Source of the DNA: an uncultured Gammaproteobacteria bacterium
GTDB lineage: Bacteria; Patescibacteriota; Microgenomatia; Levybacterales; GWA1-39-11
NCBI GenBank assembly: GCA_964472415.1
Contig: CAYYLC010000001.1
Location: 3,269-67,268, forward strand
DNA: 64,000 nucleotides
Direction of reading: 5' to 3'
Part shown: positions 4,660 through 45,828 of the stretch, piece after piece
How positions within the stretch are numbered: the first letter of the stretch is position 1
How the letters are laid out: every line of letters begins with the position of its first letter
Translations under genes and position numbers: made by a program
The notes under the pieces: generated by a model
Databases searched by the model: none
Told to the model about the DNA's origin: nothing
What the model saw: the letters and a program-made list of their open reading frames with translations, nothing else

Positions 4660-4684
4660 GAACCTTTAAACAGGTTCTTTTTTT
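4660..4684 (+). terminator. second intrinsic terminator (GAACCTttaaacAGGTTC plus TTTTTTT), plausibly the native guaA terminator
   Basis: Perfect 6-bp stem, 6-nt loop and a 7-T run, located 40 nt after the cassette terminator and before the fusA leader. Confidence 0.5.
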
Positions 4685-4748: not shown

Positions 4749-6866
4749 ATGGCTGAAACAGTTGTTACAAAAGATAGAAACGTTGCGCTCGATAAAATCC
4801 GAAATTTCGGAATTATCGCGCATATTGATGCGGGGAAAACTACTACTTCTGAGCGTATTCTTTATTATACTGGAAGAACATATAAAATTGGTGAAGTTCA
4901 TGAGGGGGCAGCTACTATGGACTGGATGGCTCAGGAACGAGAACGGGGAATCACTATTGTATCTGCTGCGACTACCACATTTTGGAAAGATTATCGTTTT
5001 AATTTAATTGATACTCCCGGACACGTAGACTTTACTGCTGAAGTTGAGCGCTCGCTCAGAGTTCTTGATGGAGCAATTACGGTTCTGGATGCTGAGGAAG
5101 GAGTTCAGTCACAGTCAGAAACCGTTTGGCGACAAGCCGATAAATATCATGTTCCTCGAATTTGTTTCGTAAATAAGATGGATAAGTTAGGAGCAGATTA
5201 TGAAAAAACAATTCAGTCTGTGATTGATAGACTTGGGGCAAATCCAATAACGATCGGACTTCCAATCGGTGCTGAAAATGACTTCAAGGGAATCTATCAT
5301 GTACTAGATGAAAAGGCATATATTTGGTCGGGAGAAGAATTAGGGGCAAATTTTGAGATAGTTGAAGGAATTCCGGAAGGCATGGAAGAAATGGTGAAAA
5401 AATATCGTGAACAGATGATAGAAAAAATTGCGGAGACTGATGACGCCCTTCTTGAGAAATATCTGAACAGTGAAGAAATTTCATATGACGAATTAAAAAA
5501 AGCTCTGAGAGCAGCAACTATTGCCTATAAAGTAGTGCCAGTGTTTGCAGGAACATCATTGAGAAATAAAGGTGTGCAGCCACTTCTGGATGCAGTTGTT
5601 GATTTCCTTCCTTCTCCAATGGATCTCGAAACTGTTGTCGGTACAAACCCCAAAACGAATGAAGAAGTAGTAAGAAAGTTGACTCCTGAGGAATCATTTA
5701 CCGGATTTGCATTTAAAGTTCAAGTTGATCCACATGTAGGAAAGATTACATATGTTCGAATTTATTCAGGAAAGCTTACTTCTGGAAGTTACGCATATAA
5801 TTCTACAAAAGATGTGCGTGAGCGAGTAGGGAGACTTTTGCTTATGCATGCAAATCAACGAGAAGAAATTAAAGAAGCGTATGCTGGAGAGATAGTTGCG
5901 GTGGTTGGATTTAAAGAAACGATTACGGGAGATACGCTTTGTGAAGAAGCAAGTCCGATTCTTCTTCAGAAAATTACTTTCCAAGATCCAGTTATTTCTC
6001 TTGCTATTGAACCAAAGACGAAGACAGATCAAGAAAAATTAGGTGCTGCTATGAAGCGTCTTATGGAGGAGGATCCTACATTTTCTGTAAAGATTAATCA
6101 TGAAACAGGGCAGACTATTATGTCTGGAGTTGGGGAGCTGCAGCTTGAAATTATGGTTGACCGCATGAAGCGAGAGATGCACGTTGAGGCAAATGTAGGC
6201 GCGCCGCAAGTAGCATACAAAGAGACAATTAAAAATCCTGCTAACGCTGAGGCAAAGTATATCAAACAGACCGGAGGTCGTGGTCAATATGGCCATTGTT
6301 TGATAAAAGTTGAACCACTTCCTCGAGGTGAGGGATTTGAATTCGTTAACGCTATTAAGGGAGGAGCAATCCCGCAGGAATTCATTCCATCTGTTGAAAA
6401 AGGAGTAAGAGAAGCGATGGAGCGAGGGGTGCTTTTGGGATATCCAGTAGTAGATTTGAAAGTAACGCTCTATGATGGGACGTATCATGATGTGGACTCT
6501 TCTGATGTTGCATTTAAGATTGCAGGATCTCAGGCATTCCAGCAGGGTGCGAAGAAGGCAGAATTAACACTTCTTGAACCTATTATGAAAGTTGAAGTTA
6601 CCACTCCTGAAGAATTTATGGGAGATGTTATTGGTGATCTTTCCTCAAAAAGAGCACAAATTCAGGGGACAGAGGAGCGAGGAAATTCACGAATTGTTCT
6701 TGCACTCGTGCCGCTTGCAGAGCTTTCTGGATACGCTACAACGCTTCGATCTCTTACTCAAGGGCGTGCAAATCCATATATGGAGCCTTCTCATTATGAT
6801 GAGGTGCCGAAAAATGTTCAAGAACAAATGGTCGCAAAAACAAACTTCACCGCTCGAGTTGAATAA
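4749..6866 (+). CDS. fusA: elongation factor G
   Basis: 705 aa with the translational GTPase motifs ([21 protein letters not shown]) and EF-G domains II-V. Confidence 0.95.
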
Positions 6867-6899: not shown

Positions 6900-8081
6900 A
6901 TGGCACGGAAAAAAATTTCAGAATTTAGAGCAAAGTCACTTCTTTATCAATTCCTACAAAGAGACTATTCAGGAATATCTATTGATGGAGATGAAGATTT
7001 TGATGAGAGAATTTCGCATCTTGATTCTTCAAAAAGATATGTTTTAAAAGTAGATCAAGGGATAAAGCAGCGCAAGAAAAAAGGGCTAGTATTTTTTAAT
7101 GTTACCTCTGAAAATATAAGAGGAAAAATAGAAGAATTAACCAATAGGGGATTTTCACACTTCATTATTGAAGAGTTTTTAGAGCACGAAAATTTTTCAG
7201 AAAAATATTTTGCAGTTGAACGCATTCGTGAAGGGAAAAAGATTTTGTATTCTCTAGAAGGTGGAGTTGATATAGAAGATAATAAAGAAACTATTAAAAG
7301 TTTTGTTGTAGGCAAGGATGAGGATTTGCGTGCGATAGCAAGTGTGTTAGAGGTAAGCTTTGAAGTAATTCGTGACATCCTTTCTGCATTTGATGATTAT
7401 TATTTTTCATTTTTGGAAATAAATCCATTAGTTGTGCATAGTGGAGAATTTTACTTCCTAGATACTGCTGTAGAGGTGGATAGCGCAGCTGAATTTTTTG
7501 TATCGGGCGCATGGGGAAGTAGTGATTTTAGGGAAAATGGCAATCGAAAAAAAACTTTAGAGGAACAAGAAGTAGAGAGGTTGAAAGAGGGGAGTCCTGC
7601 ATCATTTAGTTATGAAATACTTAATCCAGATGGAGCGATATTTTTACTGCTTTCAGGTGGTGGTGCATCGCTCGTTACAGCAGATGAGATTTATCAAAAG
7701 GGAAAGGGGGAGAAGTTGGCGAATTATGGAGAGTACAGTGGAAATCCGAATCAGGAGGAGACATATATATACACAAAACAAATCCTTGCAACGTTGTTGA
7801 AATCCAAAGCCCCTAAAAAATCTGTTATTATTTCCGGTGGAGTTGCGAATTTTACCGATGTGAGAAATACATTTCGGGGAATTATAACAGCTATGTCAGA
7901 AGTATCTAGTAGATTGCGGGAAGACAATGTGAAAGTATTTGTGCGACGCGGCGGACCGTATCAGGAGGAGGGGCTTTCTATGATGCGAGATTTCCTAGAA
8001 AAAGAAGAGTTGTTGGGAGCAGCTTGCGGACCTGATATGGTGTTAACAGATATTGTAAAACCAGCAATTGATCATTTGTAA
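6900..8081 (+). CDS. aclB: ATP-citrate lyase small subunit (ATP-grasp, SCS-beta-like)
   Basis: 393 aa that aligns well to the N-terminal region of eukaryotic ACLY (LANYGEYSGxP...GGxANFTxVxxTFxGI...FVRRGGPxYQEGL; YFLDTAVEVDSAAEF against YVLDLAAKVDATADY). Confidence 0.8.
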   Translation: MARKKISEFRAKSLLYQFLQRDYSGISIDGDEDFDERISHLDSSKRYVLKVDQGIKQRKKKGLVFFNVTSENIRGKIEELTNRGFSHFIIEEFLEHENFSEKYFAVERIREGKKILYSLEGGVDIEDNKETIKSFVVGKDEDLRAIASVLEVSFEVIRDILSAFDDYYFSFLEINPLVVHSGEFYFLDTAVEVDSAAEFFVSGAWGSSDFRENGNRKKTLEEQEVERLKEGSPASFSYEILNPDGAIFLLLSGGGASLVTADEIYQKGKGEKLANYGEYSGNPNQEETYIYTKQILATLLKSKAPKKSVIISGGVANFTDVRNTFRGIITAMSEVSSRLREDNVKVFVRRGGPYQEEGLSMMRDFLEKEELLGAACGPDMVLTDIVKPAIDHL

Positions 8082-8083
8082 CT

Positions 8084-9865
8084 ATGAATATTAATGCACT
8101 GAGAAGTACTTCAGTAAAAATAGTTGTTATTGGAAATCATCCAGCAATTATTCAGTCGATTCTCGACTATGACTATCTGTCTGGAAAAGATACTCCAAGT
8201 ATTCTTGCGGTGGTTTCAGGTGGGCGAAACTTTCAACGTTTTTTCTTTGGAAATAAGGAGATCTTAGTTCCGGTTTTTGATTCAATACAAAGCATCCCAA
8301 AAAATGTATGCAAGGAGATTACAATGTTTGTAAATGCAGGTTCTGGCAGACGAGTCCTAGTTTCTTCTGTTGAGGTAATTGATAGTTTTCCAAATCTGCA
8401 AATTGGGACAATATTTGCAGAGGGCGTCCCCGAAAAACATGTACTCGATTTGGGAGTATATGCAAAGCTAAAAAATATTGCCCTTATAGGTCCGGCAAGT
8501 GTCGGTATGGTTTTGCCAGGAGTATTTAAGCTGGGTGCAATTGGTGGGGTAAATAGTAAGCAAATTCAAACGTCTGGTATATTGCAGCGAGGTGGTGTGG
8601 CAGTGCTTTCAGCATCAGGGGGCATGGTGAATGAGGTAATAAATATCGTAGGAGCAAGTCATAATGCGCTTTCATTTGCATTATCTTTTGGAGGAGATAG
8701 ATTTCCATTACTTGAGCCGGTTGATGCCGTAAGATCTGCAGAATTAGATTCACAAACACAGGCAGTTGTTTATTATGGTGAGCTGGGTGGAGAAGACGAA
8801 TATAAAATTGCCGAACTCCTTAATCAGAATGAATTTAAAAAACAGATGATCTGCTATATTGCAGGCACTGTTTCTGATTTATTCGATACGCCTCCGCAGT
8901 TTGGTCATGCAAAGGCGATGGCAGAGAAAAATGAGGAATCAGCTCATGCAAAAAGACGTGTTCTTCGGGAAGCAGGTGCAATAGTTCCTGAGAGTTTTAC
9001 AGAATTTGTGCAGGAAATTCATAAATTGAAGAATTTTGGAACACGAGAGGTAAGTGATACAATAGAAATTGTGGAGGAAAGACATCATAGATTGATTGCT
9101 TCAAGTATTTCAAAAGACGAACAAGGGGAGATAAAAATTTTAGGCGAAGACTTAGTGCCTTTTGCAAAAGAGAATTCATTTTCGAAAATTGCCATATCAC
9201 TTTTTCTGGGGAAAAAGATTCAATCTTCTGATACTGAAGAATTAGTAGACTTTATTTTACGAATTTCTGTAGAGCATGGTCCCTATGTTTCAGGTGCTCT
9301 TAATACGATTATTACTGCTCGTGCAGGGAGAGATCTAGTTTCATCGCTTGCGAGCGGGCTTTTAACTATTGGTCCACGATTTGGTGGCGCTATAAATCAA
9401 GCAGCAGCCTCGTGGTTTGAGGGAGTAATGAATAAAAAAGATGCACATGATTTTGTAGAAGAATTTGCAGTACGTCGTGAATATATCCAAGGAATTGGGC
9501 ATAAAAAATACCGAATTGACATGCCGGATCCACGAGTTGTAGACTTAAAAAGATTTGCAGATAGGTTAGAGAAGAAGCGATTTATTACGTTTGCTCAGGC
9601 AGTAGAAAAGAAAACATCTGAGAAAAAAGGGAATTTGATTTTAAATGTTGATGGAACAATCGGGGCAATATTACTTGATTATCTTTCTGAAAAAGAAGGA
9701 TATACAGATGTTGATTTGAAAAGGCTTATTGATGCAGAGTTTTTTAATGCGCTATTTGTATTATCCAGAAGTGTTGGATTTATAGCACACTTCCTCGATC
9801 AAAAACGACTTGATGAAGGACTTCTCAGATTGACAGAAAATGATGTAGCCGATGCAAGTATATAA
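8084..9865 (+). CDS. aclA: ATP-citrate lyase large subunit (CoA-binding SCS-alpha-like plus citryl-CoA lyase/citrate-synthase-like domain)
   Basis: 593 aa. It carries the phospho-His loop QFGHAKA (ACLY has QFGHAGA), HGPYVSGALNTIITARAGRDLVSSLASGLLTIGPRFGG (ACLY: [38 protein letters not shown]), NLILNVDG, and FVLSRSVGFIAHFLDQKRL. Confidence 0.8.
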   Translation: MNINALRSTSVKIVVIGNHPAIIQSILDYDYLSGKDTPSILAVVSGGRNFQRFFFGNKEILVPVFDSIQSIPKNVCKEITMFVNAGSGRRVLVSSVEVIDSFPNLQIGTIFAEGVPEKHVLDLGVYAKLKNIALIGPASVGMVLPGVFKLGAIGGVNSKQIQTSGILQRGGVAVLSASGGMVNEVINIVGASHNALSFALSFGGDRFPLLEPVDAVRSAELDSQTQAVVYYGELGGEDEYKIAELLNQNEFKKQMICYIAGTVSDLFDTPPQFGHAKAMAEKNEESAHAKRRVLREAGAIVPESFTEFVQEIHKLKNFGTREVSDTIEIVEERHHRLIASSISKDEQGEIKILGEDLVPFAKENSFSKIAISLFLGKKIQSSDTEELVDFILRISVEHGPYVSGALNTIITARAGRDLVSSLASGLLTIGPRFGGAINQAAASWFEGVMNKKDAHDFVEEFAVRREYIQGIGHKKYRIDMPDPRVVDLKRFADRLEKKRFITFAQAVEKKTSEKKGNLILNVDGTIGAILLDYLSEKEGYTDVDLKRLIDAEFFNALFVLSRSVGFIAHFLDQKRLDEGLLRLTENDVADASI

Positions 9866-10820
9866 GAACGTTCCTCTCTCAACAATTTTATGGTACGAAA
9901 TAGGTGGAGTTGCCGAGACAGTAATTGATATTTCGTCTACACAAGATCTTCACGAAGCACTCCAGTATATTCAAGATCACAACATAACCAACGTTTTTTC
10001 CATAGGCTTTGGGAGCAATATACTTTTTCCTGATACCATTTTTAATGGTGTGATATTGCGATTTCAGATTCAAGAAGATGGAGAGGGAGTGCGAAGAATT
10101 TCAGAAGACACAGTAGAAGCATTCGCTGGAGAGATGTTTGATAGTGTTATTCAATTTGGATTTGATAATTCTTTAATAGGTTTGGAATGGGCAGGAGGAC
10201 TGCCGGGGACAGTGGGGGCTGCGGTGAGAGGAAATGTTGGCGCTTTTGGTGGAGAGGTCCAAGATGTATTTTTCAAAGCACATTGCATAAAGATTCTTGA
10301 CCATGGTGGATATGAAGAATTGATATTGACCCGAGATGAAATGGAGTTTGCGTATAGGACGAGTAAAGTAAAAAAGGAAAAATTAATTGTAGTTTCTAGT
10401 CAATTTAAATTAAAAATCGCCACTCCTGAAGAACTTCTGAATGCGCGGGAGGCATATTATCAGAATATAATCTATCGTCAGGAAAGACACCCTCTTGATT
10501 ATCCAAATTGTGGAAGTGTATTTAAGAATATTTCAAATACTGTTGAAGTTGAGAAAGTAAAAAAAACATGGCCTAATACAAAAGAGCTTATTGAAACAAA
10601 ATGGCATGGAAAGGTTAGTATGGGGTATTTGATAGAAAGATTAGGATTGAAAGGTTTTCAGGTTGGGAAAGCACAAGTCTCAGAGAAGCACCAGAATTTT
10701 ATCGTAAATTTGGGTGGTGCAAAATCTCAAGATGTACGAAAAATTATTACAACTATTGAGAATGCTGTACAGAAAGAATTTGGATTTACTCCAGAAGTGG
10801 AGATAGAGATAATCGAATAA
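9852..10820 (+). CDS. murB: UDP-N-acetylenolpyruvoylglucosamine reductase
   Basis: 322 aa with an FAD-binding PCMH domain and the MurB C-terminal motifs (AYRTS, NCGSVFKN). The start overlaps the end of aclA by 14 nt. Confidence 0.85.
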   Translation: MQVYKNVPLSTILWYEIGGVAETVIDISSTQDLHEALQYIQDHNITNVFSIGFGSNILFPDTIFNGVILRFQIQEDGEGVRRISEDTVEAFAGEMFDSVIQFGFDNSLIGLEWAGGLPGTVGAAVRGNVGAFGGEVQDVFFKAHCIKILDHGGYEELILTRDEMEFAYRTSKVKKEKLIVVSSQFKLKIATPEELLNAREAYYQNIIYRQERHPLDYPNCGSVFKNISNTVEVEKVKKTWPNTKELIETKWHGKVSMGYLIERLGLKGFQVGKAQVSEKHQNFIVNLGGAKSQDVRKIITTIENAVQKEFGFTPEVEIEIIE

Positions 10821-10956: not shown

Positions 10957-11565
10957 CTATTTCGGCTCATTGTTTAAACTTTTCCATAGCACCATAGAGG
11001 CAAAAGTTCTATAGGGTTTCCATTTTTCTGAAATTTCTAGAAGCTCTTTCTTTGTGGGTTCTTCAAGTCCATATAATTTTTTAATTGCATTTCGTAGACC
11101 TAAGTCCTGTACAGAGAATATATCGGGTCTACCGAGTGAAAACATTAAAAACATCTCTGCGCTCCAATTTCCAATACCCTTAATAATAGTTAGATTTTTG
11201 ATAACAGTTTCATTATCATCCTTGTGGAGCGTTTCAAGAATTAGTTTTTTCTCGATTACTTTCTCTGCAAGGTCTTGTATATATCCTATTTTTGGATAAG
11301 AAATTCCACACATTCTTAGTTTTTCTGTATCCATGTGTAGTACTTTTTCAGGAGTTATATTATTCTCAAAAAGATTTTGGAATCGCGTAAAAATAGTTTG
11401 CGCAGCCTTAACTGAAAGTTGTTGTCCTACAATTGAACGACAAAGGCGAGTGAAGTGTTCTGAAGAGGGGAGCATCGGAGTAAATGGTCCAATACTTATA
11501 GCAAGTTTATAAAGGAGTGAATCTGTTTTCTTAAAATGTTCGAGTGCTTTTTCGTACATGTGCAT
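10957..11565 (-). CDS. HhH-GPD family DNA glycosylase (AlkA / 3-methyladenine glycosylase II-like)
   Basis: HhH-GPD motif (IKGIGNWSAEMFLMFSLGRPDIFSVQDLGL). The track ORF 10957..11790 was trimmed to the internal Met (MHMYEK...) because the upstream extension overlaps the promoter and start of the divergent gene at 11603. Confidence 0.65.
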   Translation of the reverse strand: MHMYEKALEHFKKTDSLLYKLAISIGPFTPMLPSSEHFTRLCRSIVGQQLSVKAAQTIFTRFQNLFENNITPEKVLHMDTEKLRMCGISYPKIGYIQDLAEKVIEKKLILETLHKDDNETVIKNLTIIKGIGNWSAEMFLMFSLGRPDIFSVQDLGLRNAIKKLYGLEEPTKKELLEISEKWKPYRTFASMVLWKSLNNEPK

Positions 11566-11602
11566 ATTATACTCATGATTTTTGTTATAATGACAGAATA
11601 AA

Positions 11603-12391
11603 ATGGCAAAACCAAAGATAGCATTTTCCGTGGCAGATATCCCTTTAGGAATTGCGCTAGAAGAGTATTTTTTACTCGCGAGCCATTTGAAAGTTGATGG
11701 TATAGAGCTTGTGATAGGATGGAAGACGCGCTGGGCGATGAAAAAAATTTCCCGACTTTCCAAGCGGTATGATGTCCCGATTCTTTCCATTCATCAGCCA
11801 CCCTGGGCACTTGCTGGATTTATTAAAGATGAAGGCAGCTTTAAGTTTGCTCAAAGATATAACGCAAAATTTGTTGCACATCCTCTGGTGGTGCAGCATA
11901 TTAATTCCCCTCAGTCTCAAAAATATTATCGATGGTTGAGAGATATGGGGAAAAAATACAACCTCGAGATTTTAATTGAGAATATGACAAACATTTATCA
12001 ATTACTCCCACTCCTTCACTATGTCTCGAAAAAGCACCATGATACTGCAACGGAACTTCCCCGGTTTGAGAAGATTTGTAAAAAATATAATTTCGGATTT
12101 ACGCTTGATATCGCACATCTTATGCAGTCAAATCCCCAAAATGCTCCAGGATTTAAAGAAATACTTCCGTATCTAAAAAATATTCATTTGAGCGACTACA
12201 CTGCGAAGAAAGAGCATATGGGTATTGGTAATGGAGACTTGAATTATGAAGGATTCCTTTCGTACCTTGTTGAAGAAAAATATGAAGGGATTGTAAATCT
12301 TGAATTGTGCCCTAGGATTTTGAATGCGCGGGAGAAGTATTATAAGGATATTACTGAATCAGTAAAACTCGTAAGGAAGTTTATTAAATAA
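11603..12391 (+). CDS. sugar phosphate isomerase/epimerase (xylose isomerase-like TIM barrel, AP endonuclease 2 superfamily)
   Basis: 262 aa with HxxE/ENM/D...H/E metal-ligand spacing typical of the family (IENMTN, LDIAHL, NLEL). TGtTATAAT at 11583-11591 lies 12 nt before the ATG. Confidence 0.5.
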   Translation: MAKPKIAFSVADIPLGIALEEYFLLASHLKVDGIELVIGWKTRWAMKKISRLSKRYDVPILSIHQPPWALAGFIKDEGSFKFAQRYNAKFVAHPLVVQHINSPQSQKYYRWLRDMGKKYNLEILIENMTNIYQLLPLLHYVSKKHHDTATELPRFEKICKKYNFGFTLDIAHLMQSNPQNAPGFKEILPYLKNIHLSDYTAKKEHMGIGNGDLNYEGFLSYLVEEKYEGIVNLELCPRILNAREKYYKDITESVKLVRKFIK

Positions 12392-19067: not shown

Positions 19068-22000
19068 TTATTGGATAGCGGTTATGCGGAATATAACTTC
19101 TGTTGCGTCGCCAACAAAATCTTCATTACCGTCAACGGCAATATAAATTTTATCTCCAGCAGATAGTGTGCCGAGATTGAAGATTTCAGGATTTATCGTC
19201 CATGGTAGTCCAAGAGTTGTAAGAGATGCGATCTCCTCTTTGTCATTATTGAATACTCTCAAGGTTGCACTTGTTCCCCACGGAAGAACTCTTCGGATGC
19301 TAAGGTTTGATATTGAATACTCTCCAGTAATCGGCGTGATAAATGCGGATACTACGAGGTGATTATTTGCTGGCGGATGCATCTGAAGATCAAATACTCC
19401 GGATGGCTCTGGTGTGTTTGATTCTTCTCCTCCGCTTCCGCGCGGGGTAGAGCTTTTTCCAATATAGGGATAATTTCCGTTTCCTATCCAAAATGAAGAT
19501 AAATTATTAAATGTCTCGGGGTGATTACCGGATATAAATTGTGAGAATAAACTATCTAAAAGAACGCCATTATCGTCTGTTGATTCATATAATTCTAAGG
19601 TTGTCGATATTGTGTTTGATGAGTCGTTGAGCGTTGCTTGAGCACTATCGCTACTTATTTCGATATCATATGAATTCCAAATAAATTCACCTGTAGGAAT
19701 TATTGTAGGGGCTGGGCTTGGTGTTGGCGTAATGTTATGAGATTCTTTGAGGCTTACTGTCCAGGTAACCTCCGTCGCATCGCCGACAAAGTCTCCATCA
19801 CGATCAACTGCAAAATAAATTCTATCACCCTCTGAGAGTTCACCAAGTTCATATTCTGTAGTATCTATTGTCCAATCTTGTCCTGTTGCTTGGATGGTTG
19901 CTATCTCGTTCTGATCAGTATCAAATACTCGAAGTGTAGTCGTGTTTCCCCAGGAAAGTACTCTCCGTGCTGCGAGATTTGAAATAGAATAGGCGCCATC
20001 TTGAGGAATAATAAATGATGCGGTGATAAGCTTGTCGCTTTCTGGGGGTGACATCTGTAGATCATAAACTCCTTCTGGTGCAGGGGTGTCTATCTCACTT
20101 GATTCAGACCCTCGTGCAGTTGTACTTTTCCCAATATATGGATATTCTCCGAAGTCTCCTGGATCTCTTGACCAGAAGGTTGAGACATTGTTAAACGTTT
20201 CAGGATGAGTAGCGTCATTCCATGCTGAGAGTAGCTCACCGCGCTCTACTCCATCATCGTTGGCTGACTCATACAATTCTAGAATTACAGGATTTGATTC
20301 ATTTTCATCAAATAATATTGCAGTAGCTGATTCAGAGCTTGTCTCAGTGTCATATGAATTCCAGGAGGTAAGGATAGATTCGTTTCCATTGACAGTAAGC
20401 GTAATGCTTTGAGCTGCAGTGTCATTTTCATTCGATGCAGTAAGCGTATATTCAGTTGTTTCTGTTGGGGAGATGGTTGCTGTTCCACTGGCTTCAATAG
20501 AGCCTAAGTGTGTTATGGTTACCTCTGATGCGTTTGAAGTTTCCCAAGATATGGTCGCGTTATCTCCAGAATTTATCTCAGATGGATCTAGAGTGAAAGT
20601 ATGAATTATCGGTGAACTGGTAATAAGAGATGCAGAGATTGTGGCATTAGTTAGTGTAGAAATCTCTTGGTTTTGTAGTCCGCCATTTGACCAGCTATCA
20701 AATATATAGGTTGCGCCATTGATTATTTGTGGTGAAGGAACAAAAAGAGAACTCGTTCCACCAGCTGTTATTGCAGCAGTATCAGGCGTTGTGTGAGTTA
20801 TGCCATTAAGGACTACGGTTGCTCCTTCAGGAGCGCTTTGAAGGTTCAAATTTACCTTCTTTGATCCAATAATTCTGTTTGTTGTTGTTTCTAAGCCGCT
20901 ACTGTCTCTTGTAGTAACGAATAGCTCTAAATCTGTTCCTTCCCCATGATCAGGCGCAGTAAAACTTCCTGAAGAACCTGTGCCTGAAAGGAATGGGTGG
21001 GTGTGACAAGTGTTTGATATCAATTCACAGTGATTGAGAATAAGATTCCAGGAAATGTTATCTTCGCTGATGACTCCATCCTCTGTATCTATTGCTTGTG
21101 CAGTAAAATTTATGGTTTCTCCTACGATATATTCATACCCTTCTATAGGAGTATTGATAGTGACCTCTGGGGGAGTATTTCCTGGATACACCGTGAGCTC
21201 TTGAGTTGTAGAATTTCCTTTCAGGTCTGATACGGTTAATGAAACTTCATATGTGCCACCAATAAGATATGTGTGATTCGGATTTTCACTTTGTGAGGTA
21301 TTACTATCTCCAAAATCCCATTCATAGAATAACATTTCACCAGATGGACTATAAGTACCTTCGCTTGAGAACTGTATAAATAATGGAACTGGTCCTGACT
21401 GAGGTGTTGCTGTCATATTCACAATCGGAGCACTCGAAGATGTCCCATATGTAATTCTTCTCAATTGCCCAGTGTATATTGAGACATAATAGATGTCTCC
21501 ATTTGGACCAGAAAATATTTGTACGGGGCCATCTGGTTGCTCTGAAAACACCTCGACGCTTCCTTCGATAAGCTTATTTTCTTCATCAACATCCATTGCC
21601 CATATGACGCTTTGGCTATAATCTCCAAAGTAATATTTGTTGTGATATTGTTCAGGATATGATGTCCCCGCGTAGAAGGTGCCGCCCACAATAGAAGATC
21701 CTGGTGGATGAGGATATACGTGAATTGGCGGAATTACTGTGTTGGATGCTTCTAAGTCTTGGCATAATTCATAGGCGGAATATCCGAGGACGAACTCGTT
21801 TCCTTCAAAGCATGGCCATCCATAATTATTCCCAGGTGTTACTACGTTAATCTCTTCCCAGGTTCCCCATCCTACATCCCCAGCAAAAATAGTATTCTCT
21901 CCCGGCTTAACACTAAATCGGAATGGATTTCTAAAACCATATGCCCATACTTTAGAACGATTATCATTTGGATTGCCAGTATAGAATGGATTGTTCGGCA

Positions 22001-24026
22001 AGCCTGTTCCATCGGTATTGATTCTCAATATCTTTCCCGATAATATATCGAGATTCTGTGCTCTGAGTGCTTGAGTGTTTACATTCGTATCTGGTGCGCC
22101 ATCTCCTACAGATACGAGGAGTGAGCCATCTGCCATAAATGCCATTCCGCCAATAGTGTGGGTTCTTGCATCAGATGGTATGCAGTCAGTGTCTGGATAA
22201 TTGTCGCAAGAAGGATTTTCTACGGTGCCATTATTGGTTCCCAGGATAATTTCCATAGTGTTAAGATCTGCAGTAGTTCCTTCTACTGTGAGTCGTATAA
22301 CTCGTGCTGATTTGACGCCTTCAAAATCAGTTGGATTAATGTCATAAGAGTATGCAGCATAGAGGTGTCCATTTTGCGCAAAGTTGGGATCAAGTGCAAT
22401 GGAGAGAAGGCCTCTATCTTGGTATGTATTTACGTTTGGGATTACTACCAGAGGATCAGGAAGGAGTGTGCCATTTTCTACAACGCGTATAGTTCCATCT
22501 TTTTCAGCGACAAATATTTTTCCATCTGGAGCGATTGCGGCATATGTGGGAAGATTAAATCCAGTCGCAAGTACTTCAGTTTGGAAACTTTGGGATGCAT
22601 TTTGAATATAAGCATCGTTCAGCGTTACGTCGTCGAAATACATTGTGTGGTTATTTGTTGGTGTAGAGAAATAAGAACCCCATGTCATAACATGGATATC
22701 GTCGCGTCCAGCAAGCCCTGTATTAATCTCTGTAAAGTGTACGATCTTTTCACCATCGAGCCAAACTTCGATCTGTCCGTGTTCTTCATCAACAGTTACC
22801 CGTGATTGAATTTCATGCCAAGAACCATCTCGCGGAATTGCTGGACCGAAAGGACCAGGGAAATGCGTTTCTCCATCAGAGCTAAAATAGACTGGACTTA
22901 ATCGATAGTCTGATCCGATAGTAAGCCAGAGGATATTTCTAAAATCGTCAGTTTTATAGACGATTGCGTTGTGTACTGATCCGGGGTCGAGGTTGTAATC
23001 TTCCGGAAGACTGATGTGCGTTTTTTGATAAATGGTGCTTCGTTTATCAAAAAATTGATCAATAACTGCTGTAGGTTCTGAGCCGCCAGTACTTATTTCG
23101 AGAGCGTAATTTCCTGTTCTGACGTGATTGCTATTCACCTCCAAAGTGTTTCCTTGACGTACGTCAATATTTGGTTGAGGATAGGCAGAAGTGTCACCCT
23201 CTTCAAATCCATTTGAAAAAATAGGCATTGTTGAATTGATGGTAGTAAAGTTTGCTGTATAATTATTCTCTGATCCTATGGTGATAAATTGTTCTTGGTT
23301 TCCTCCATTTGACCAGTCTGAAAAAATAACAGTCCTTCCATCTGGTGTTGTTTGGGGTGAGGGTACGTATAAAGAGTGCATTTCGCCCGATGAAGTATGA
23401 AGTGTGTATGGAACTGTTTGAGTGACTCCGTCAACGACAATCTGTAATCCTGGTTCAGATGTGTTGATTGTAATATCACGTGGTGCCTCTTCTATTACAA
23501 CGCTCACAGAGCCTACCCACCACCGGTCAAAATATTCTACTATTACTTCGTGGCTCCCTGAATTGAGCGTAATATTTTCTGTATAGGTAGTTGCGAGTTG
23601 CACCTGCCACCCATCGATGATTTGATTTCCATCTACAAAGACTTTGATTCCGTCATCAGCTCGGACAGTGAAACGATATATGCCTTCAGAGACATTTATA
23701 ATTCCTCTCCACCGTGCGCTAAACTCATCAGAATTTACCACAGGATCTGGTGATCCTTGTTCCCAGTCATAATCAATTGAGGCTTCCTCTCGTGTAAGGA
23801 CCGGGTCACCGCTGAGAGTCATGTTGTTGAAATATTCTGCGTTCCACTGTACAGAAATTGGCTCAGCTTTAGCAGAAGGGAGGATATAGAGTGCCGAAAG
23901 TGCGGTAATACCAACCGCCGCGAACATTGCATTTCGAAGTTTTCTACGTTTCGTTATCTGCTTTATTGCGTAGTTAATTTTCGATTTAAAACTTATAATT
24001 TTTTTGGATAATTTCCTTATATTCAA
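19068..24026 (-). CDS. giant cell-surface protein (1652 aa): PA14, SGL/glucose-sorbosone-dehydrogenase-like beta-propeller, PKD, two tandem ~180-aa C-terminal repeat domains
   Basis: N-terminal TM or signal sequence. PA14-like segment (YFNNMTLSGDP...FTVRADDGIKVFVDGNQII). Propeller-like segment (GFNLPTYAAIAPDGKIFVAEKDGTIRVV). PKD signature (WDFGDSNTSQ...HTY...GTYEVSLTVSD). The two C-terminal repeats share ELYES..DD.GV...HPETFNN.S.FW...YPYIGKS...RG...LQM.PP...RVL.WG....LRVF......GDATEV. Confidence 0.7.
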   Translation of the reverse strand: MNIRKLSKKIISFKSKINYAIKQITKRRKLRNAMFAAVGITALSALYILPSAKAEPISVQWNAEYFNNMTLSGDPVLTREEASIDYDWEQGSPDPVVNSDEFSARWRGIINVSEGIYRFTVRADDGIKVFVDGNQIIDGWQVQLATTYTENITLNSGSHEVIVEYFDRWWVGSVSVVIEEAPRDITINTSEPGLQIVVDGVTQTVPYTLHTSSGEMHSLYVPSPQTTPDGRTVIFSDWSNGGNQEQFITIGSENNYTANFTTINSTMPIFSNGFEEGDTSAYPQPNIDVRQGNTLEVNSNHVRTGNYALEISTGGSEPTAVIDQFFDKRSTIYQKTHISLPEDYNLDPGSVHNAIVYKTDDFRNILWLTIGSDYRLSPVYFSSDGETHFPGPFGPAIPRDGSWHEIQSRVTVDEEHGQIEVWLDGEKIVHFTEINTGLAGRDDIHVMTWGSYFSTPTNNHTMYFDDVTLNDAYIQNASQSFQTEVLATGFNLPTYAAIAPDGKIFVAEKDGTIRVVENGTLLPDPLVVIPNVNTYQDRGLLSIALDPNFAQNGHLYAAYSYDINPTDFEGVKSARVIRLTVEGTTADLNTMEIILGTNNGTVENPSCDNYPDTDCIPSDARTHTIGGMAFMADGSLLVSVGDGAPDTNVNTQALRAQNLDILSGKILRINTDGTGLPNNPFYTGNPNDNRSKVWAYGFRNPFRFSVKPGENTIFAGDVGWGTWEEINVVTPGNNYGWPCFEGNEFVLGYSAYELCQDLEASNTVIPPIHVYPHPPGSSIVGGTFYAGTSYPEQYHNKYYFGDYSQSVIWAMDVDEENKLIEGSVEVFSEQPDGPVQIFSGPNGDIYYVSIYTGQLRRITYGTSSSAPIVNMTATPQSGPVPLFIQFSSEGTYSPSGEMLFYEWDFGDSNTSQSENPNHTYLIGGTYEVSLTVSDLKGNSTTQELTVYPGNTPPEVTINTPIEGYEYIVGETINFTAQAIDTEDGVISEDNISWNLILNHCELISNTCHTHPFLSGTGSSGSFTAPDHGEGTDLELFVTTRDSSGLETTTNRIIGSKKVNLNLQSAPEGATVVLNGITHTTPDTAAITAGGTSSLFVPSPQIINGATYIFDSWSNGGLQNQEISTLTNATISASLITSSPIIHTFTLDPSEINSGDNATISWETSNASEVTITHLGSIEASGTATISPTETTEYTLTASNENDTAAQSITLTVNGNESILTSWNSYDTETSSESATAILFDENESNPVILELYESANDDGVERGELLSAWNDATHPETFNNVSTFWSRDPGDFGEYPYIGKSTTARGSESSEIDTPAPEGVYDLQMSPPESDKLITASFIIPQDGAYSISNLAARRVLSWGNTTTLRVFDTDQNEIATIQATGQDWTIDTTEYELGELSEGDRIYFAVDRDGDFVGDATEVTWTVSLKESHNITPTPSPAPTIIPTGEFIWNSYDIEISSDSAQATLNDSSNTISTTLELYESTDDNGVLLDSLFSQFISGNHPETFNNLSSFWIGNGNYPYIGKSSTPRGSGGEESNTPEPSGVFDLQMHPPANNHLVVSAFITPITGEYSISNLSIRRVLPWGTSATLRVFNNDKEEIASLTTLGLPWTINPEIFNLGTLSAGDKIYIAVDGNEDFVGDATEVIFRITAIQ

Positions 24027-30401: not shown

Positions 30402-31622
30402 TTATGGTAATTTCGGAAATAATGGGATATGGAAGTTAGTGTTTGGAGAAGTTTTTCTATCAATACTGAGAAGAGTTGTTGCAAAATTAATCTGTTTTTT
30501 ATCATAGAGTGCGTAGATGCGCCTTGCTTTATTTTTTTGGATTGGGCTTTCAGGGAAAAGTAAGCCTTGATAAGAATTATCTTCAGAAAAATCAGAAATA
30601 GTGACACCTGTTGCGCGATAAAGTGTGTTGGAATGATATATCTTTTTAAATCCCGCACGGAGCTCTTTGCGAATAAGGATGGGGAAAGATGTTTTCTGGG
30701 GAATTTTTAGTTCAATTTCATGGTAGGTAAATTTCTGCGTTTTTAAATAGAGGAAAATTTTCCCTACAGAATAATTAAATTTTCTTGCCTTCAGAAATGA
30801 GCTTTCAACATGCGTAAGGATTCGCGCCCAGAGAATACTTTTATTAGTGATTGCAGGAGTAATTGTTTGAGATTTGGTAATAGACTTATAATTTGCTTTA
30901 GGTTGAGGGTCTACGGAGAAAAGTAATATGCCGTTTAATTCTTGCCAGATTTCATAAAATGGTTTTGGGAATGCTGACTTAATAAATCCTTCCGGGCGAA
31001 TGGTGAAGTCGTACGCAGTTTTTATGTTGAGTGCGCGAAGCTTTGGAGCGCTTCGGTAGCCGATTCCCCAAACTTTCTCAATACCAGTTTGCTTGAGAAG
31101 ATCTTTTGCTTGGTCTTTTGGAGCGATAGTAAGTCCAGATGGCTTATTAAGGTTTGCTGCAATTTTTGCAAGAGATTTTGTAATAGAGATGCCTATCGAG
31201 ACAGTGATGCCAAGCGAATTCTCAATCTCATTTTTCAGAGCTTTTCCGATTTGTTCATAAGACATATTAAATGGTTTTTCAAGTCCGCGTAGATCCATAA
31301 ATCCTTCATCTATAGAATATATCTCTACGCTTGGTGAATATTTTTTCATGACAGAAAACATGTTGTCTGAGAATAAATGGTACAGTCTGTAGTCAGAGGC
31401 TGTAATAATTACCTGAGGGAATTGTTTTTTAATCTCCCAGCAAGGCATGCCACGAATGACTCCCAGTTTTTTTGCTTCATATGATACAGCTGTTGCGATT
31501 CCTCGCTCAAGACCGGAGACGATTGGTTTCCCCTGGAGCTCTGGTCGGATTGCCTGAGTTACTGATGCAAAAAATGCATCAGCATCCAAGTGTAATATTG
31601 CGTTAGGCCATGAAGTGGACAT
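30402..31622 (-). CDS. dinB: DNA polymerase IV (Y-family translesion polymerase)
   Basis: N-terminal HLDADAFFASV and SIDEGFMDL catalytic motifs, with palm, fingers and little-finger organisation. Confidence 0.85.
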   Translation of the reverse strand: MSTSWPNAILHLDADAFFASVTQAIRPELQGKPIVSGLERGIATAVSYEAKKLGVIRGMPCWEIKKQFPQVIITASDYRLYHLFSDNMFSVMKKYSPSVEIYSIDEGFMDLRGLEKPFNMSYEQIGKALKNEIENSLGITVSIGISITKSLAKIAANLNKPSGLTIAPKDQAKDLLKQTGIEKVWGIGYRSAPKLRALNIKTAYDFTIRPEGFIKSAFPKPFYEIWQELNGILLFSVDPQPKANYKSITKSQTITPAITNKSILWARILTHVESSFLKARKFNYSVGKIFLYLKTQKFTYHEIELKIPQKTSFPILIRKELRAGFKKIYHSNTLYRATGVTISDFSEDNSYQGLLFPESPIQKNKARRIYALYDKKQINFATTLLSIDRKTSPNTNFHIPLFPKLP

Positions 31623-31682
31623 AATACATTCTGAAGAACTGTTTAAATAATTGTAAAATTTTTTTAGATTGGGATTTCATAA

Positions 31683-32243
31683 TTAGTACTTTCGCATGAC
31701 ACTTTTTACAATGCCAAATACTCTAAGCTCCGTAACGGGAATAAATTCAGGATAATTTGGATTTGCAGCTCTGAGAATGCTGATGCCATTCTTCTTATCG
31801 AGGAGTTTGAGAGTCCATTCATTATCAATAAGTGCCAGCACAATATCTCCAGAGCGGGCGTTGGTCGTTTTTTCTATTACTATGAGATCTCCTTCAAAAA
31901 TCCCCACACCCTCCATAGAATCTCCAGATACTTTTAGGAGAAACGAGCTTGTGGGTTTGTCTATGAGATACTCATCAAGAGAGAGGAAATTTAATTCCTC
32001 TTCAGCACCAGTTGGAAATCCTGCTTTAATATTTCCGAGAATCGGTACCTGAAAGAAAAAATTCGTGGGAGAGAGTTTATTGTTTACTTTCTGGAGATAG
32101 TTTTCTTCAATCAAGCCTTTAATAATTTTATGAATCGCGTTTTTAGAAGAGAGTTCAAAAAGTACAAGCATTTCAGAATATGAGGGTATGCGTTTATTTT
32201 TTTTATAAAATTGTCTAATTTGTTCGAGATATTTCGTATTCAT
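31683..32243 (-). CDS. lexA: LexA repressor (S24 peptidase)
   Basis: N-terminal wHTH and a C-terminal S24 domain with Ser (GDSM) and Lys. It lies upstream of dinB on the same strand, as in an SOS operon. Confidence 0.8.
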   Translation of the reverse strand: MNTKYLEQIRQFYKKNKRIPSYSEMLVLFELSSKNAIHKIIKGLIEENYLQKVNNKLSPTNFFFQVPILGNIKAGFPTGAEEELNFLSLDEYLIDKPTSSFLLKVSGDSMEGVGIFEGDLIVIEKTTNARSGDIVLALIDNEWTLKLLDKKNGISILRAANPNYPEFIPVTELRVFGIVKSVMRKY

Positions 32244-32263
32244 AATTTTCCGATAGGAATAAT

Positions 32264-32292
32264 ACTATAGTGAACGATTGTTCACCTGTCAA
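32264..32292 (-). promoter_or_regulatory. lexA promoter (TTGACA-17-TATAGT on the minus strand) with the LexA operator GTGAACgattGTTCAC (32270-32285) filling the spacer
   Basis: Minus-strand read: TTGACAgGTGAACaatcGTTCACTATAGT. A perfect GAAC-N4-GTTC (Cheo-box-like) palindrome lies 27 nt upstream of the lexA ATG. Confidence 0.6.
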
Positions 32293-32311
32293 TATGACAA
32301 AGTAGTGCAAT

Positions 32312-33286
32312 TTATTGACTGGAAAAATATTCGTAGACTTTCTCAGAAATTTTTGCCTCAATTTCTGCGGCAGTTGTTTGGTTGTTTGTTTGAGAGAGTA
32401 GTACTAATACATAGTCTCCATACGGTGAATAGATAATTCCTGCATCATGTTTTATCGTTCCCAATTCTCCAGTTTTATGTGCGATCTCTATATTTTTAGG
32501 AAGGTATTTCGGAATCCTGTCATTAAGCTGCTGACGCTTTAGGATCATAAGCATTTCTCTCGAAGCGTTTTTGCTAACAATTTCACCTTTATATAGGAGT
32601 TCATAATATTTAAGGACGTCATTTGCTGTACTGGTGACAGAGTCAATTGATGAGTTATCTAAACTGTATTTACTTAAAAATTCTCCAACCTTATTCCAGC
32701 CAATCGTAAGATAGAGAATATGTGCAGAATAGTTATCAGATACAGTTATCATGCGATCGAGTGCGCCTTCTACTGTATTGCCTATGAATCCTTCGGTAAT
32801 TTCTGCTGATTCTGTTGCGATACCTAATCGTTTATTGATAATATCTGCTTCAAATCCTATATTCTGTTGTAGAGTGAGATTTCCTTTTTCGATTTCTTCA
32901 AATATCGCTCCCATGACCCAGAGCTTGTAAAGGCTCGCGGTTTCAAAAATTTCATGCTCATTATAAAAATAGGACTCATTAGTCTTTAGATTTTTTATTG
33001 AGATGGCATATTTTCCCTCAGCATTCTGAAGCTCTTCTTGAATGATTTCTTCCAGTTCTGATGATTCAGATCCACTCTCGACAGTCTCTTCGATCAGATC
33101 GCCAAGTGGTTTCAGAATGGTATTTGATTCTGAACGGTTAAAAAATAGAGACACAGGGAAGCTGATGAGTAGCAAGAGAAAAAAAAGTTTTATGAGAATA
33201 TGCGCTTGAGAGCGGAAAAGTTTTTGGTAGAAAAATACGAGGAAAAAGACTCCTAAGATAAGAAGTAAAAGATATAAAAATTCCAT
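32312..33286 (-). CDS. class A beta-lactamase-like serine hydrolase (membrane-anchored)
   Basis: N-terminal TM helix, S-x-x-K motif (ASLYK), SDN (VSDNYS), and KTG (HKTGE). Confidence 0.65.
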   Translation of the reverse strand: MEFLYLLLLILGVFFLVFFYQKLFRSQAHILIKLFFLLLLISFPVSLFFNRSESNTILKPLGDLIEETVESGSESSELEEIIQEELQNAEGKYAISIKNLKTNESYFYNEHEIFETASLYKLWVMGAIFEEIEKGNLTLQQNIGFEADIINKRLGIATESAEITEGFIGNTVEGALDRMITVSDNYSAHILYLTIGWNKVGEFLSKYSLDNSSIDSVTSTANDVLKYYELLYKGEIVSKNASREMLMILKRQQLNDRIPKYLPKNIEIAHKTGELGTIKHDAGIIYSPYGDYVLVLLSQTNNQTTAAEIEAKISEKVYEYFSSQ

Positions 33287-33598: not shown

Positions 33599-34786
33599 AT
33601 GGCAACAGCAAAATTTGATAGATCAAAACCACACGTAAATATCGGGACCATTGGTCACGTCGACCATGGTAAGACGACAACAACTGCTGCAATAACTAGT
33701 GTTCTTGCAAAGAAAGGTTTTGCAGAGGCAAAGAAGTACGAAGATATTGATAATGCTCCTGAAGAAAAAGAACGAGGAGTTACTATTAACATTTCCCACC
33801 AGGAATACGAGACTGATAAAAGACACTATGCGCACATTGATGCTCCTGGGCACGCTGACTATATCAAAAACATGATTACTGGTGCAGCCCAGATGGACGG
33901 TGCGATCCTTGTAGTATCAGCTCCAGATGGACCTATGCCTCAGACTCGAGAACACATTCTTCTTGCACGACAAGTTGGAGTACCAAGAATTATAGTATTC
34001 CTAAATAAAACAGACATGGTTGATGACCCAGAACTTATTGAGCTCGTTGAGATGGAGATCCGAGAACTTCTTACAAAATATCAATATCCAGGAGATGATA
34101 CTCCGATTATCAGAGGATCAGCTTTGAAAGCGCTTGAGGGTGACGCAGATGCTGAAAAAGCAATTATGGATCTTATGGATAAGGTTGATGAGTATATTCC
34201 TACCCCAGAGCGGCCAGTCGACAAACCTCTTCTTATGCCTGTAGAAGATGTTTTCTCGATCAAAGGACGAGGAACTGTGGTAACGGGAAGAATTGAACGA
34301 GGAATGGTTAAAGTAAATGAAGAAGTAGAAATTGTTGGGATTACACCAAAATCAACAAAGACAATTGTTACTGGAATCGAGATGTTTCGAAAGCAGCTTG
34401 ATGAGGGACAAGCAGGAGATAACGCTGGATTACTACTTAGAGGAGTAGAAAAAGATGATGTAGAGCGTGGACAGGTTATAGCAAAGCCAGGATCCATTAC
34501 TCCTCATACTGATTTTGAAGCTGAAGTGTATATTTTGACAAAAGAAGAGGGTGGACGACATACACCATTTTTCTCAGGATATCGACCACAATTCTATGTA
34601 CGAACTACTGATGTAACTGGAGAGATTAAACTTCAAGAAGGTGTTGAGATGGTTATGCCTGGAGATAACGCAAAAATGAATGTTTCACTGATCGTTCCTG
34701 TTGCTATGGAAGAGGGAATGAGATTCGCTATTCGAGAAGGCGGAAGGACAGTAGGAGCTGGAGTTGTCACGAAAATAACAAAATAA
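33599..34786 (+). CDS. tuf: elongation factor Tu
   Basis: 395 aa with [21 protein letters not shown]. Near-canonical EF-Tu. Confidence 0.97.
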
Positions 34787-45821: not shown

Positions 45822-45828
45822 TCTTCTT

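Follow-up and report, generated by a model that had tools for sequence, protein, structure and literature searches.

We analysed a 64-kb stretch of DNA from contig CAYYLC010000001.1 (called the window below, always at its full length), using its open reading frames (ORFs) and their translations as the basis. The subject of this report is a pair of co-directional genes, whose predicted products are the two subunits of an ATP-citrate lyase (ACL) and which we refer to as aclB and aclA (together, aclBA). The host genome is that of a member of Levybacteria, i.e. of the candidate phyla radiation (CPR, Patescibacteria). The two genes are as follows:

6900-8081, + strand: aclB, ACL small subunit (ATP-grasp plus ACL-specific citrate-binding domain), 393 aa; Pfam, phmmer
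8084-9865, + strand: aclA, ACL large subunit (CoA-ligase/phosphohistidine module resembling the alpha subunit of succinyl-CoA synthetase (SCS), fused to a citryl-CoA lyase domain), 593 aa; Pfam, phmmer

Both subunits were searched for Pfam domains and compared by phmmer with all PDB chains. In AclB, the domains Citrate_synth_N (PF24948, the ACL ATP-grasp; 122 bits, cutoff 83) and Citrate_bind (PF16114; 174.5 bits, cutoff 26.8) together span residues 2-391, and in AclA Ligase_CoA (PF00549) covers residues 175-299 and the C-terminal citrate-synthase fold (PF00285) residues 365-582. The best PDB match of both subunits was human ACLY: residues 1-391 of AclB aligned with its residues 1-420 (218 bits, E 1.6e-63), and residues 6-588 of AclA aligned continuously with its residues 492-1091 (343 bits, E 2e-101), the homology extending over the complete lyase domain, through the core of which the tetramer would assemble. 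High scores were also obtained with the two-subunit enzymes of Methanothrix/Methanosaeta concilii (ACLY-A against AclB, 207 bits, E 3e-60; ACLY-B against AclA, 321 bits, E 1e-94) and Chlorobium limicola (AclB, 126 bits; AclA, 230 bits, E 6.5e-67).

Three related identities were considered and rejected. The PDB chains of SCS reached 26 bits (SCS-beta against AclB) and at most 82 bits (SCS-alpha against AclA), and the NCBIfam models sucCoAbeta and sucCoAalpha gave 58 bits (cutoff 375.6) and 102 bits (cutoff about 336-353), respectively; these low scores, together with the fused lyase domain, speak against SCS. Citryl-CoA synthetase (CCS) matched with 63 bits (large subunit, against AclB) and 68 bits (small subunit, against AclA), and citryl-CoA lyase (CCL) with 59 bits (against AclA, with no match to AclB); apart from the low scores, the lyase of the window enzyme is fused to AclA, unlike the separate CCS and CCL proteins. 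Citrate synthase was dismissed on account of its score (at most 56 bits against AclA) and of the domain fusion. As judged from its sequence, aclBA is a genuine heteromeric, two-subunit ATP-citrate lyase (EC 2.3.3.8).

Using the HMMER alignment with full-length ACLY, we paired the predicted active-site and citrate-site residues with those of the human enzyme and then followed them in 13 large and 73 small subunits of CPR bacteria:

7722-7742, + strand: NYGEYSG loop of aclB, whose last residue, G281, pairs with human G309; alignment, conserved in 73 CPR small subunits
7845-7856, + strand: ANFT loop of aclB, in which N317 and T319 pair with human N346 and T348; alignment, conserved in 73 CPR small subunits
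7944-7955, + strand: RRGG of aclB, in which R350 pairs with human R379; alignment, conserved in 73 CPR small subunits
8420-8422, + strand: E113 of aclA, pairing with human E599; alignment, invariant in 13 CPR large subunits
8897-8917, + strand: phosphohistidine loop QFGHAKA, in which H275 pairs with human H760; alignment, invariant in 13 CPR large subunits
9272-9313, + strand: EHGPYVSGALNTII block of the lyase domain, in which H398 pairs with human H900; alignment, invariant in 13 CPR large subunits
9500-9502, + strand: H473, pairing with human H975 (catalytic His of the lyase/citrate-synthase type); alignment, invariant in 13 CPR large subunits
9635-9658, + strand: LILNVDGT motif; translation
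9650-9652, + strand: D523 in NVDG, pairing with human D1026 (catalytic Asp of the lyase); alignment, invariant in 13 CPR large subunits

In the ACLY-citrate structures of the human protein, G309, N346, T348 and R379 are citrate-binding residues. Their counterparts G281, N317, T319 and R350 are kept in at least 97% of the 73 CPR small subunits, and the same degree of conservation was observed for the ATP-grasp lysines and the GGGAS loop, and for 71 positions of AclB in all. Nothing in the two translations gives aclBA the appearance of a pseudo-enzyme. These results bear out most of what a first-pass annotation of the same DNA had proposed for the pair: a two-subunit ACL, with both ORFs alignable with human ACLY along their whole length and with the phosphohistidine-loop and lyase-domain motifs, which we found at the coordinates expected. 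The two outcomes that would have spoken against it did not appear, since SCS scored low and lacks the fused lyase, and all of the catalytic residues checked are conserved on alignment.

We also considered that the pair might encode an enzyme of the ACL fold with another substrate or with partial activity (for example a variant of citryl-CoA synthetase/lyase, or some other acyl-CoA synthetase). The window enzyme is only 36-37% identical to ACLs of the characterised type; AclB is about 30 residues shorter than the N-terminal half of the human protein, with deletions in the ATP-grasp region; and no assayed member of the CPR group was found in the literature searched. On the other hand, the citrate-site, lyase and phosphohistidine residues are all conserved, the lyase is fused as in true ACLs and unlike the separate CCS and CCL, and the scores of CCS (68/63 bits) and SCS (82/26 bits) are far lower than those of ACL. 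We therefore regard a different substrate as very unlikely.

Database names for the large subunit are inconsistent and mostly wrong. Besides 'ATP citrate (pro-S)-lyase', they include 'citrate/2-methylcitrate synthase', 'succinyl-CoA synthetase alpha subunit' and 'hypothetical protein', and it is under these last three that such genes are often listed.

The large-subunit family yielded 136 matches (E ≤1e-30) among 1.84 billion representatives of 50%-identity clusters, and with only this number of matching representatives it must be considered small. For phylogenetic analysis we used 58 sequences (583 alignment columns), comprising the window enzyme, sequences from 20 CPR loci and two sets of representatives, 22 with two subunits and 15 that are fused (about 1,000-1,160 aa, the eukaryote type); the tree, purely distance-based, was constructed by neighbour-joining (NJ) from Kimura distances with 200 bootstraps, and support was counted by splits. 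In 200 of the 200 bootstraps, 28 CPR sequences were split from all others. This CPR clade contains Levybacteria, Woesebacteria, Saccharimonadia, one Dojkabacteria representative and a few others, with which the window enzyme shares 44-73% identity. Outside it lie P0144, which represents a second, distant lineage of Saccharibacteria (35% identity), and P0134 from DPANN, and the deeper branching of the tree received support below 35%.

The first-pass annotation had called the enzyme eukaryote-like, a description that goes too far. Apart from its placement in a CPR clade of its own, the window enzyme is equally identical (36-37%) to the best fused and the best M. concilii-like representatives, and its identity to the fused representatives (29-37%) falls in the same range as that to the canonical two-subunit ones. 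The canonical two-subunit representatives P0139 and P0140 score about 690 bits both to human ACLY and to M. concilii ACLY-B, whereas the window enzyme scores 343 bits to human ACLY. A specifically eukaryotic affinity was rejected on the basis of the NJ tree and these bit scores, and the window enzyme is best described, at the level of its primary structure, as a true ACL that is not specially eukaryote-like. That human ACLY heads the list of PDB matches mainly reflects the fact that it is the best-represented canonical ACL in that database. In a 2025 study (PMC11976288) the eukaryotic ACL clades were placed beside DPANN and Thermoplasmatota archaea. With the CPR clade, the ACL tree on which discussions of how eukaryotic ACLY and citrate synthase arose are based gains a deep bacterial branch.

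Relatives were sought in one genome per GTDB species, and 409 loci were matched; all counts of distribution and gene context given below refer to the best 80 of these 409 relatives (49-73% identity, species-level genomes). They belong to Levyibacteriota, Saccharimonadia/Saccharibacteria, Woesebacteria and the "Patescibacteria group", and all of the informatively named genomes among them are Patescibacteria. A protein identical to that of the window is recorded in NCBI, JGI, ENA and Logan assemblies, its named homologues being assigned to "Candidatus Levybacteria". Many of the ACL-bearing records (L006-L011, L013-L019 and others) are titled 'uncultured Gammaproteobacteria bacterium', with the sequence falling in the CPR clade. 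These titles look like placeholder or mislabelled taxonomy; the synteny of Levybacteria is often shared by such records, and those that share it are evidently mislabelled.

The window carries a ribosomal-protein/secY/rpoA block, recA-recX, guaB-guaA, envelope glycosyltransferases and a single tRNA, a gene content that fits a CPR genome. The GC content of the aclB/aclA pair (0.37-0.38) matches that of the window (0.389), and syntenic orthologues occur in more than 50 Levybacteria species; on these grounds contamination or a recent transfer was rejected as the source of aclBA. The pair is native to the Levybacteria genome, and we consider it rather probable that it encodes a functional heteromeric ACL.

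The genes and sites that flank the pair are the following:

4660-4677: terminator-like hairpin upstream of fusA
4749-6866, + strand: fusA (elongation factor G, EF-G); Pfam EF-G domains
9852-10820, + strand: murB (UDP-N-acetylenolpyruvoylglucosamine reductase); NCBIfam TIGR00179, 193 bits, cutoff 144.5

The gaps at the junctions fusA-aclB-aclA-murB amount to 33, 2 and -14 nt, no terminator-like site was detected at any of them, and the gene that follows murB lies on the opposite strand. From this arrangement we infer that the four genes are probably co-transcribed as a single unit. A promoter scan of the window performed no better than that of shuffled sequence (21 sites found against 18.5 expected). 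The first-pass annotation had correctly placed fusA directly before the pair, noted the overlap of its end with murB and recognised a streamlined host, which proved to be a CPR bacterium.

Comparison of neighbourhoods was performed on the 80 loci and the window, in which ORFs were picked simply and clustered by BLASTP; only recurrent neighbours were annotated, and the frequencies are raw counts, taken without a background model for enrichment. The loci were divided into 54 of the Levybacteria type and 27 more distant ones, mostly of the Saccharimonadia type. Adjacency of aclB and aclA is universal. The most conserved neighbour is murB, present within three genes downstream and on the same strand in 35 of the 54 Levybacteria-type loci, and this linkage is kept across at least three different upstream contexts, the context further downstream being variable too. 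The cell-wall connection at which the first-pass annotation had hinted thus gains support. A fusA gene was found within five called genes of aclA in 28 of the 54 loci, upstream in all cases except L015. Other recurrent neighbours are greA-tdh-kbl upstream (7-8 loci, with tdh-kbl directly upstream), ddl directly upstream (4 loci) and a GNAT acetyltransferase (6 loci, after murB in most). In L022, L028, L031, L035 and L048 (around 8-18 kb) the order ddl-aclB-aclA(-murB) is found between fusA and tuf-rpsJ, within the classical str/S10 ribosomal region, which is conserved as a rule. In the window, tuf is displaced (33599-34786).

One subgroup of Levybacteria has fixed flanks, VanW-SBP-x-greA on one side and a class-I lysS on the other, and a variable slot between them (L020, L026, L030, L033, L036, L039, L040, L043, L044, L045, L049, L053 and L055; about 8-20 kb). 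The slot always contains aclBA, and its same-strand companions vary. They include (i) murB, (ii) an AMP-forming acetate-CoA ligase (acs; 812 bits, cutoff 729) in L030, L040 and L045, (iii) threonine dehydrogenase with a Kbl-type glycine C-acetyltransferase, whose best matches are slightly below the cutoffs, (iv) a phosphoketolase fused to a CoA-binding domain, (v) a cluster of aminotransferase, lysA, aspartate kinase, dapB and dapA genes, to which L030 adds a dapD-like gene and an M20 deacylase, and (vi) GNAT acetyltransferases. The phosphoketolase of L030 (4183-6975, + strand) is a 930-aa protein with XFP_N, XFP and XFP_C domains and a C-terminal CoA_binding_2 domain, encoded directly upstream of acs and the ACL; such a fusion is unusual and may couple the formation of acetyl-phosphate to CoA chemistry.

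In none of the 27 distant loci is murB linked downstream; in a single one, the Woesebacteria locus L083, the gene is close by, upstream and on the opposite strand. Neighbours detected in the distant loci include Acyl_transf_3 O-acyltransferases (4 loci), a ManC-like nucleotidyltransferase (4 loci), glmS (2 loci), and GDP-mannose dehydratase and glycosyltransferases. In three Saccharimonadia-like genomes, an archaeal-type phosphoenolpyruvate (PEP) carboxylase (TIGR02751, 490 bits) and a divergent class I/II aminotransferase lie a few genes upstream of aclBA (the carboxylase at 3913-5433 in L073, 2560-4164 in L076 and 4265-5860 in L082, + strand). Locus L074 encodes, three genes from aclA (9206-10456, - strand), a 416-aa carrier with about 10 transmembrane segments of the MatC_N/CitMHS family, i.e. 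the citrate/dicarboxylate transporter family. A BLAST comparison of this carrier with all 1,464 ORFs of the loci revealed no second copy; as the only one among the 80 loci, it indicates that linkage to a transporter is not a general feature.

In two Saccharimonadia-type loci, the genes for a 2-oxoacid:ferredoxin oxidoreductase (alpha and beta subunits) lie just beyond aclA (L065, 12424-15028, and L066, 12319-14917, both - strand), convergent with it and separated from it by one short ORF. It is this enzyme, along with the status of aclAB as a standard marker of the reductive tricarboxylic acid (rTCA) cycle (PMC12930757), that could be cited for the view that the ACL marks an rTCA cycle and autotrophic CO2 fixation, as surveys of genomes assembled from metagenomes (MAGs) that rely on aclAB would infer. 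Neither 2-oxoglutarate synthase nor fumarate reductase, aconitase, isocitrate dehydrogenase or pyruvate synthase was seen in the window or in most of the flanks, with the oxidoreductase confined to L065 and L066. The host belongs to the CPR, its window is occupied by translation, envelope and salvage genes with no recognisable TCA or rTCA enzyme, and known rTCA autotrophs have ACLs that lie outside the CPR clade. To our knowledge, CPR genomes generally lack TCA cycles. A scavenging role, moreover, has been assigned to a CPR ACL (PMC6851277). Carbon fixation is accordingly extremely unlikely. Since aclAB is used routinely as an rTCA marker in metagenome surveys, a widespread, non-autotrophic CPR clade (at least 80 species-level genomes, with up to 409 relatives) would give rise to false rTCA calls.

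By homology to the solved ACLs, the following course of the reaction may be proposed. ATP bound in the ATP-grasp of AclB would phosphorylate His275 of AclA, the phosphate would move to citrate in the citrate-binding domain of AclB to form citryl-phosphate, attack by CoA on the synthetase module would produce citryl-CoA, and the C-terminal lyase domain of AclA (H398, H473, D523) would split the latter into acetyl-CoA and oxaloacetate. CPR bacteria depend on partners for metabolites, and the substrate would be citrate from the host or the surroundings, in an organism for which neither a TCA cycle nor fatty-acid synthesis is expected. The acetyl-CoA could serve N- and O-acetylations, above all in the route to UDP-N-acetylglucosamine (UDP-GlcNAc) and UDP-N-acetylmuramic acid (UDP-MurNAc), in which MurB acts, and the oxaloacetate could be converted to aspartate and, where the pathway exists, to diaminopimelate (DAP) and lysine.

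The direction of the reaction, the source of citrate and the metabolic sinks we infer from the neighbourhoods described above, which make it fairly probable that the ACL cleaves scavenged citrate and supplies acetyl-CoA and oxaloacetate for envelope precursors and amino acids, rather than serving carbon fixation. Several observations favour this direction: (i) the slot shared by ACL, Acs, Tdh-Kbl and phosphoketolase suggests that these are alternative supplies of acetyl-CoA; (ii) an AMP-forming Acs beside the ACL would be futile or wasteful if the ACL consumed acetyl-CoA; (iii) murB and ddl belong to the route to UDP-MurNAc-peptide, whose precursor UDP-GlcNAc requires acetyl-CoA; (iv) the genes leading from aspartate to DAP/lysine could make use of oxaloacetate; (v) scavenged citrate would provide acetyl-CoA at the cost of 1 ATP, which is cheaper than the Acs reaction; (vi) for the ACL of a Gracilibacterium that has citrate transporters, the same role has been suggested (PMC6851277); and (vii) the Acyl_transf_3, glmS and sugar nucleotidyltransferase genes and the single MatC/CitMHS transporter of the Saccharimonadia-type loci were counted on the same side.

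A number of points weigh against citrate cleavage. The 64-kb window revealed neither a citrate transporter nor malate dehydrogenase, GlmU or any other sink, and a CitMHS-type transporter is nearby in only 1 of the 80 loci. The neighbourhoods of compact genomes mix unrelated functions (fusA is itself a neighbour), and the linkage to murB could be synteny inherited within one phylum. The tetrahydrodipicolinate (THDP) acyltransferase of L030, at first a candidate sign of acetyl-CoA use in DAP synthesis, was dropped, being DapD-like and thus of the succinyl type. The PEP carboxylase (L073, L076, L082), the 2-oxoacid:ferredoxin oxidoreductase (L065, L066) and Tdh-Kbl, finally, make the very products of the ACL, and neighbours of this kind fit the citrate-forming direction too. 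The ACL reaction is near equilibrium, so its direction is unreadable from sequence.

These last neighbours (tdh-kbl in 7-8 loci, the oxidoreductase of L065 and L066, and the PEP carboxylase together with its aminotransferase) are an argument for the main rival reading, the opposite direction, in which the enzyme would synthesize citrate and yield ATP (acetyl-CoA + oxaloacetate + ADP + Pi -> citrate + CoA + ATP), either saving the thioester energy of acetyl-CoA derived from threonine, pyruvate or sugars, or providing citrate for glutamate in the absence of a canonical citrate synthase. A reaction near equilibrium would permit this. There is also a precedent in Desulfobacter postgatei, in which ACL is reported to synthesize citrate, coupled to substrate-level phosphorylation (Moller et al. 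1987; reference given by PMC8085960). However, such a reaction requires stoichiometric oxaloacetate, which is costly to a fermentative symbiont, and with the AMP-forming acetate-CoA ligase of L030, L040 and L045 alongside it would form a futile loop. Aconitase and isocitrate dehydrogenase are not known near the ACL, among neighbours of which only the recurrent ones were annotated, with no screen for either enzyme, and the anabolic companions (murB, ddl, DAP/lysine) suit a role in supply better. We consider citrate synthesis by the ACL, for either of the two uses, unlikely.

A broader picture can be put forward tentatively, and we would hold it to be rather doubtful as a whole. A vertically inherited, CPR-wide ACL would turn citrate of the partner into the only acetyl-CoA and oxaloacetate of the cytoplasm, as ACLY does in the eukaryotic cytosol, and would be wired to peptidoglycan precursors (murB, ddl, DAP/lysine, GlcNAc acetylation); or else it would run backwards as an ATP-conserving citrate synthase. 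If this were true, citrate would in either direction be a key host-symbiont currency in Levybacteria and Saccharimonadia. The association of the ACL with murB, ddl, DAP/lysine genes and alternative sources of acetyl-CoA suggests that citrate is imported as a carbon currency and that the supply of acetyl-CoA for the cell wall is a bottleneck.

Several other features were observed in the window. A small central-carbon cluster (55253-61698, - strand) contains two tandem paralogous FAD-linked oxidases (GlcD/YdiJ-like, 549 and 558 aa), after which come a transketolase split in two (287 and 329 aa) and a gene resembling glycerate 2-kinase. An ORF of 1,652 aa (19068-24026, - strand), which probably encodes a giant surface protein, contains a domain resembling pyrroloquinoline quinone (PQQ)-dependent glucose/sorbosone dehydrogenases (residues 475-744). 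At 30402-33286 (- strand) there is an SOS-type pair, in which a Y-family DNA polymerase (IMS) accompanies a LexA-like S24 peptidase; the pair adjoins a gene of the class-A-like beta-lactamase fold. In the ribosomal operon, secY is followed by two consecutive adenylate-kinase-like genes (45285-46380, + strand), one matching ADK and the other only AAA_17/AAA_18. The longest ORF of an HhH-GPD glycosylase (277 aa, 10957-11790, - strand) overlaps by about 190 nt a convergent gene resembling apurinic/apyrimidinic (AP) endonucleases (11603-12391, + strand); its N-terminal extension is probably not real, as public gene calls start later (200 aa).

The presence of ACL in CPR bacteria and the hypothesis of citrate scavenging are already published (Gracilibacterium in 2019; Saccharimonadia in 2025, for occurrence). 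A two-subunit ACL of Gracilibacterium (BD1-5), found by hidden Markov model and by its phosphohistidine motif, was described as "rarely detected in CPR" and archaeal-like, pointing to lateral transfer, and was given the role of converting imported citrate to acetyl-CoA and oxaloacetate (Sieber et al. 2019, PMC6851277). In a groundwater study of 2025 (PMC12577380), aclAB (K15230/K15231) was reported as enriched in Saccharimonadia; according to its supplementary table, the genes are present in 3 of the 11 MAGs of the most enriched group (named Saccharimonadia in the text) and in 0-5% elsewhere. A 2022 preprint also mentions mis-annotated homologues of citrate-cleavage enzymes in CPR and DPANN. 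No paper combining Levybacteria with citrate lyase was found in the literature searched. Beyond that literature, what appears to be new is (i) the well-supported, CPR-specific ACL clade, present in many Levybacteria, and (ii) the gene context of the ACL across 80 genomes (murB, ddl, DAP/lysine, sources of acetyl-CoA).

Among the known systems, the ACLs of C. limicola (AclB/AclA, PDB 6HXJ) and M. concilii (ACLY-A/B, PDB 6HXI) resemble the window enzyme in being encoded by two adjacent genes, the small subunit first, with the same order of domains, the lyase fused to the large subunit and all catalytic residues in common. In contrast, the window enzyme belongs to the separate CPR clade (about 36% identity) and to a host without a known rTCA cycle, and its genes adjoin those of translation and peptidoglycan synthesis instead of carbon fixation. 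Hydrogenobacter thermophilus CCS and CCL (PDB 6HXQ/6HXP) consist of homologous modules and carry out the same overall chemistry in two steps, but they are separate proteins (68/63/59 bits), whereas the lyase of the window enzyme is fused to the large subunit. The ACL of D. postgatei is of the same family and is reported to work in the ATP-forming direction in vivo within the complete oxidative TCA cycle of a sulfate reducer; no such cycle is expected in the host of the window.

Human ACLY, a single-chain enzyme (PDB 6HXH, 6POE), shares with the window enzyme the residues E599, H760, H900, H975, D1026, N346, T348 and R379, and its role is likely analogous, namely the production of acetyl-CoA from citrate made in another compartment or organism. 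It differs in that the two halves are unfused in the window, with no linker region, in the identity of 36-37%, and in the NJ tree, where the window enzyme is not sister to eukaryotes. The Gracilibacterium ACL is, like that of the window, a two-subunit CPR enzyme; the former, the sequence of which is not in our tree, was reported as archaeal-like, whereas the latter shares a broad CPR clade with the enzymes of Saccharimonadia, Woesebacteria and Dojkabacteria. The aclAB of Saccharimonadia (PMC12577380) is the same gene pair by KEGG orthology, and Saccharimonadia sequences are members of the clade of the window enzyme; that study presents a frequency statistic only, with no analysis of clade, context or function and no mention of Levybacteria.

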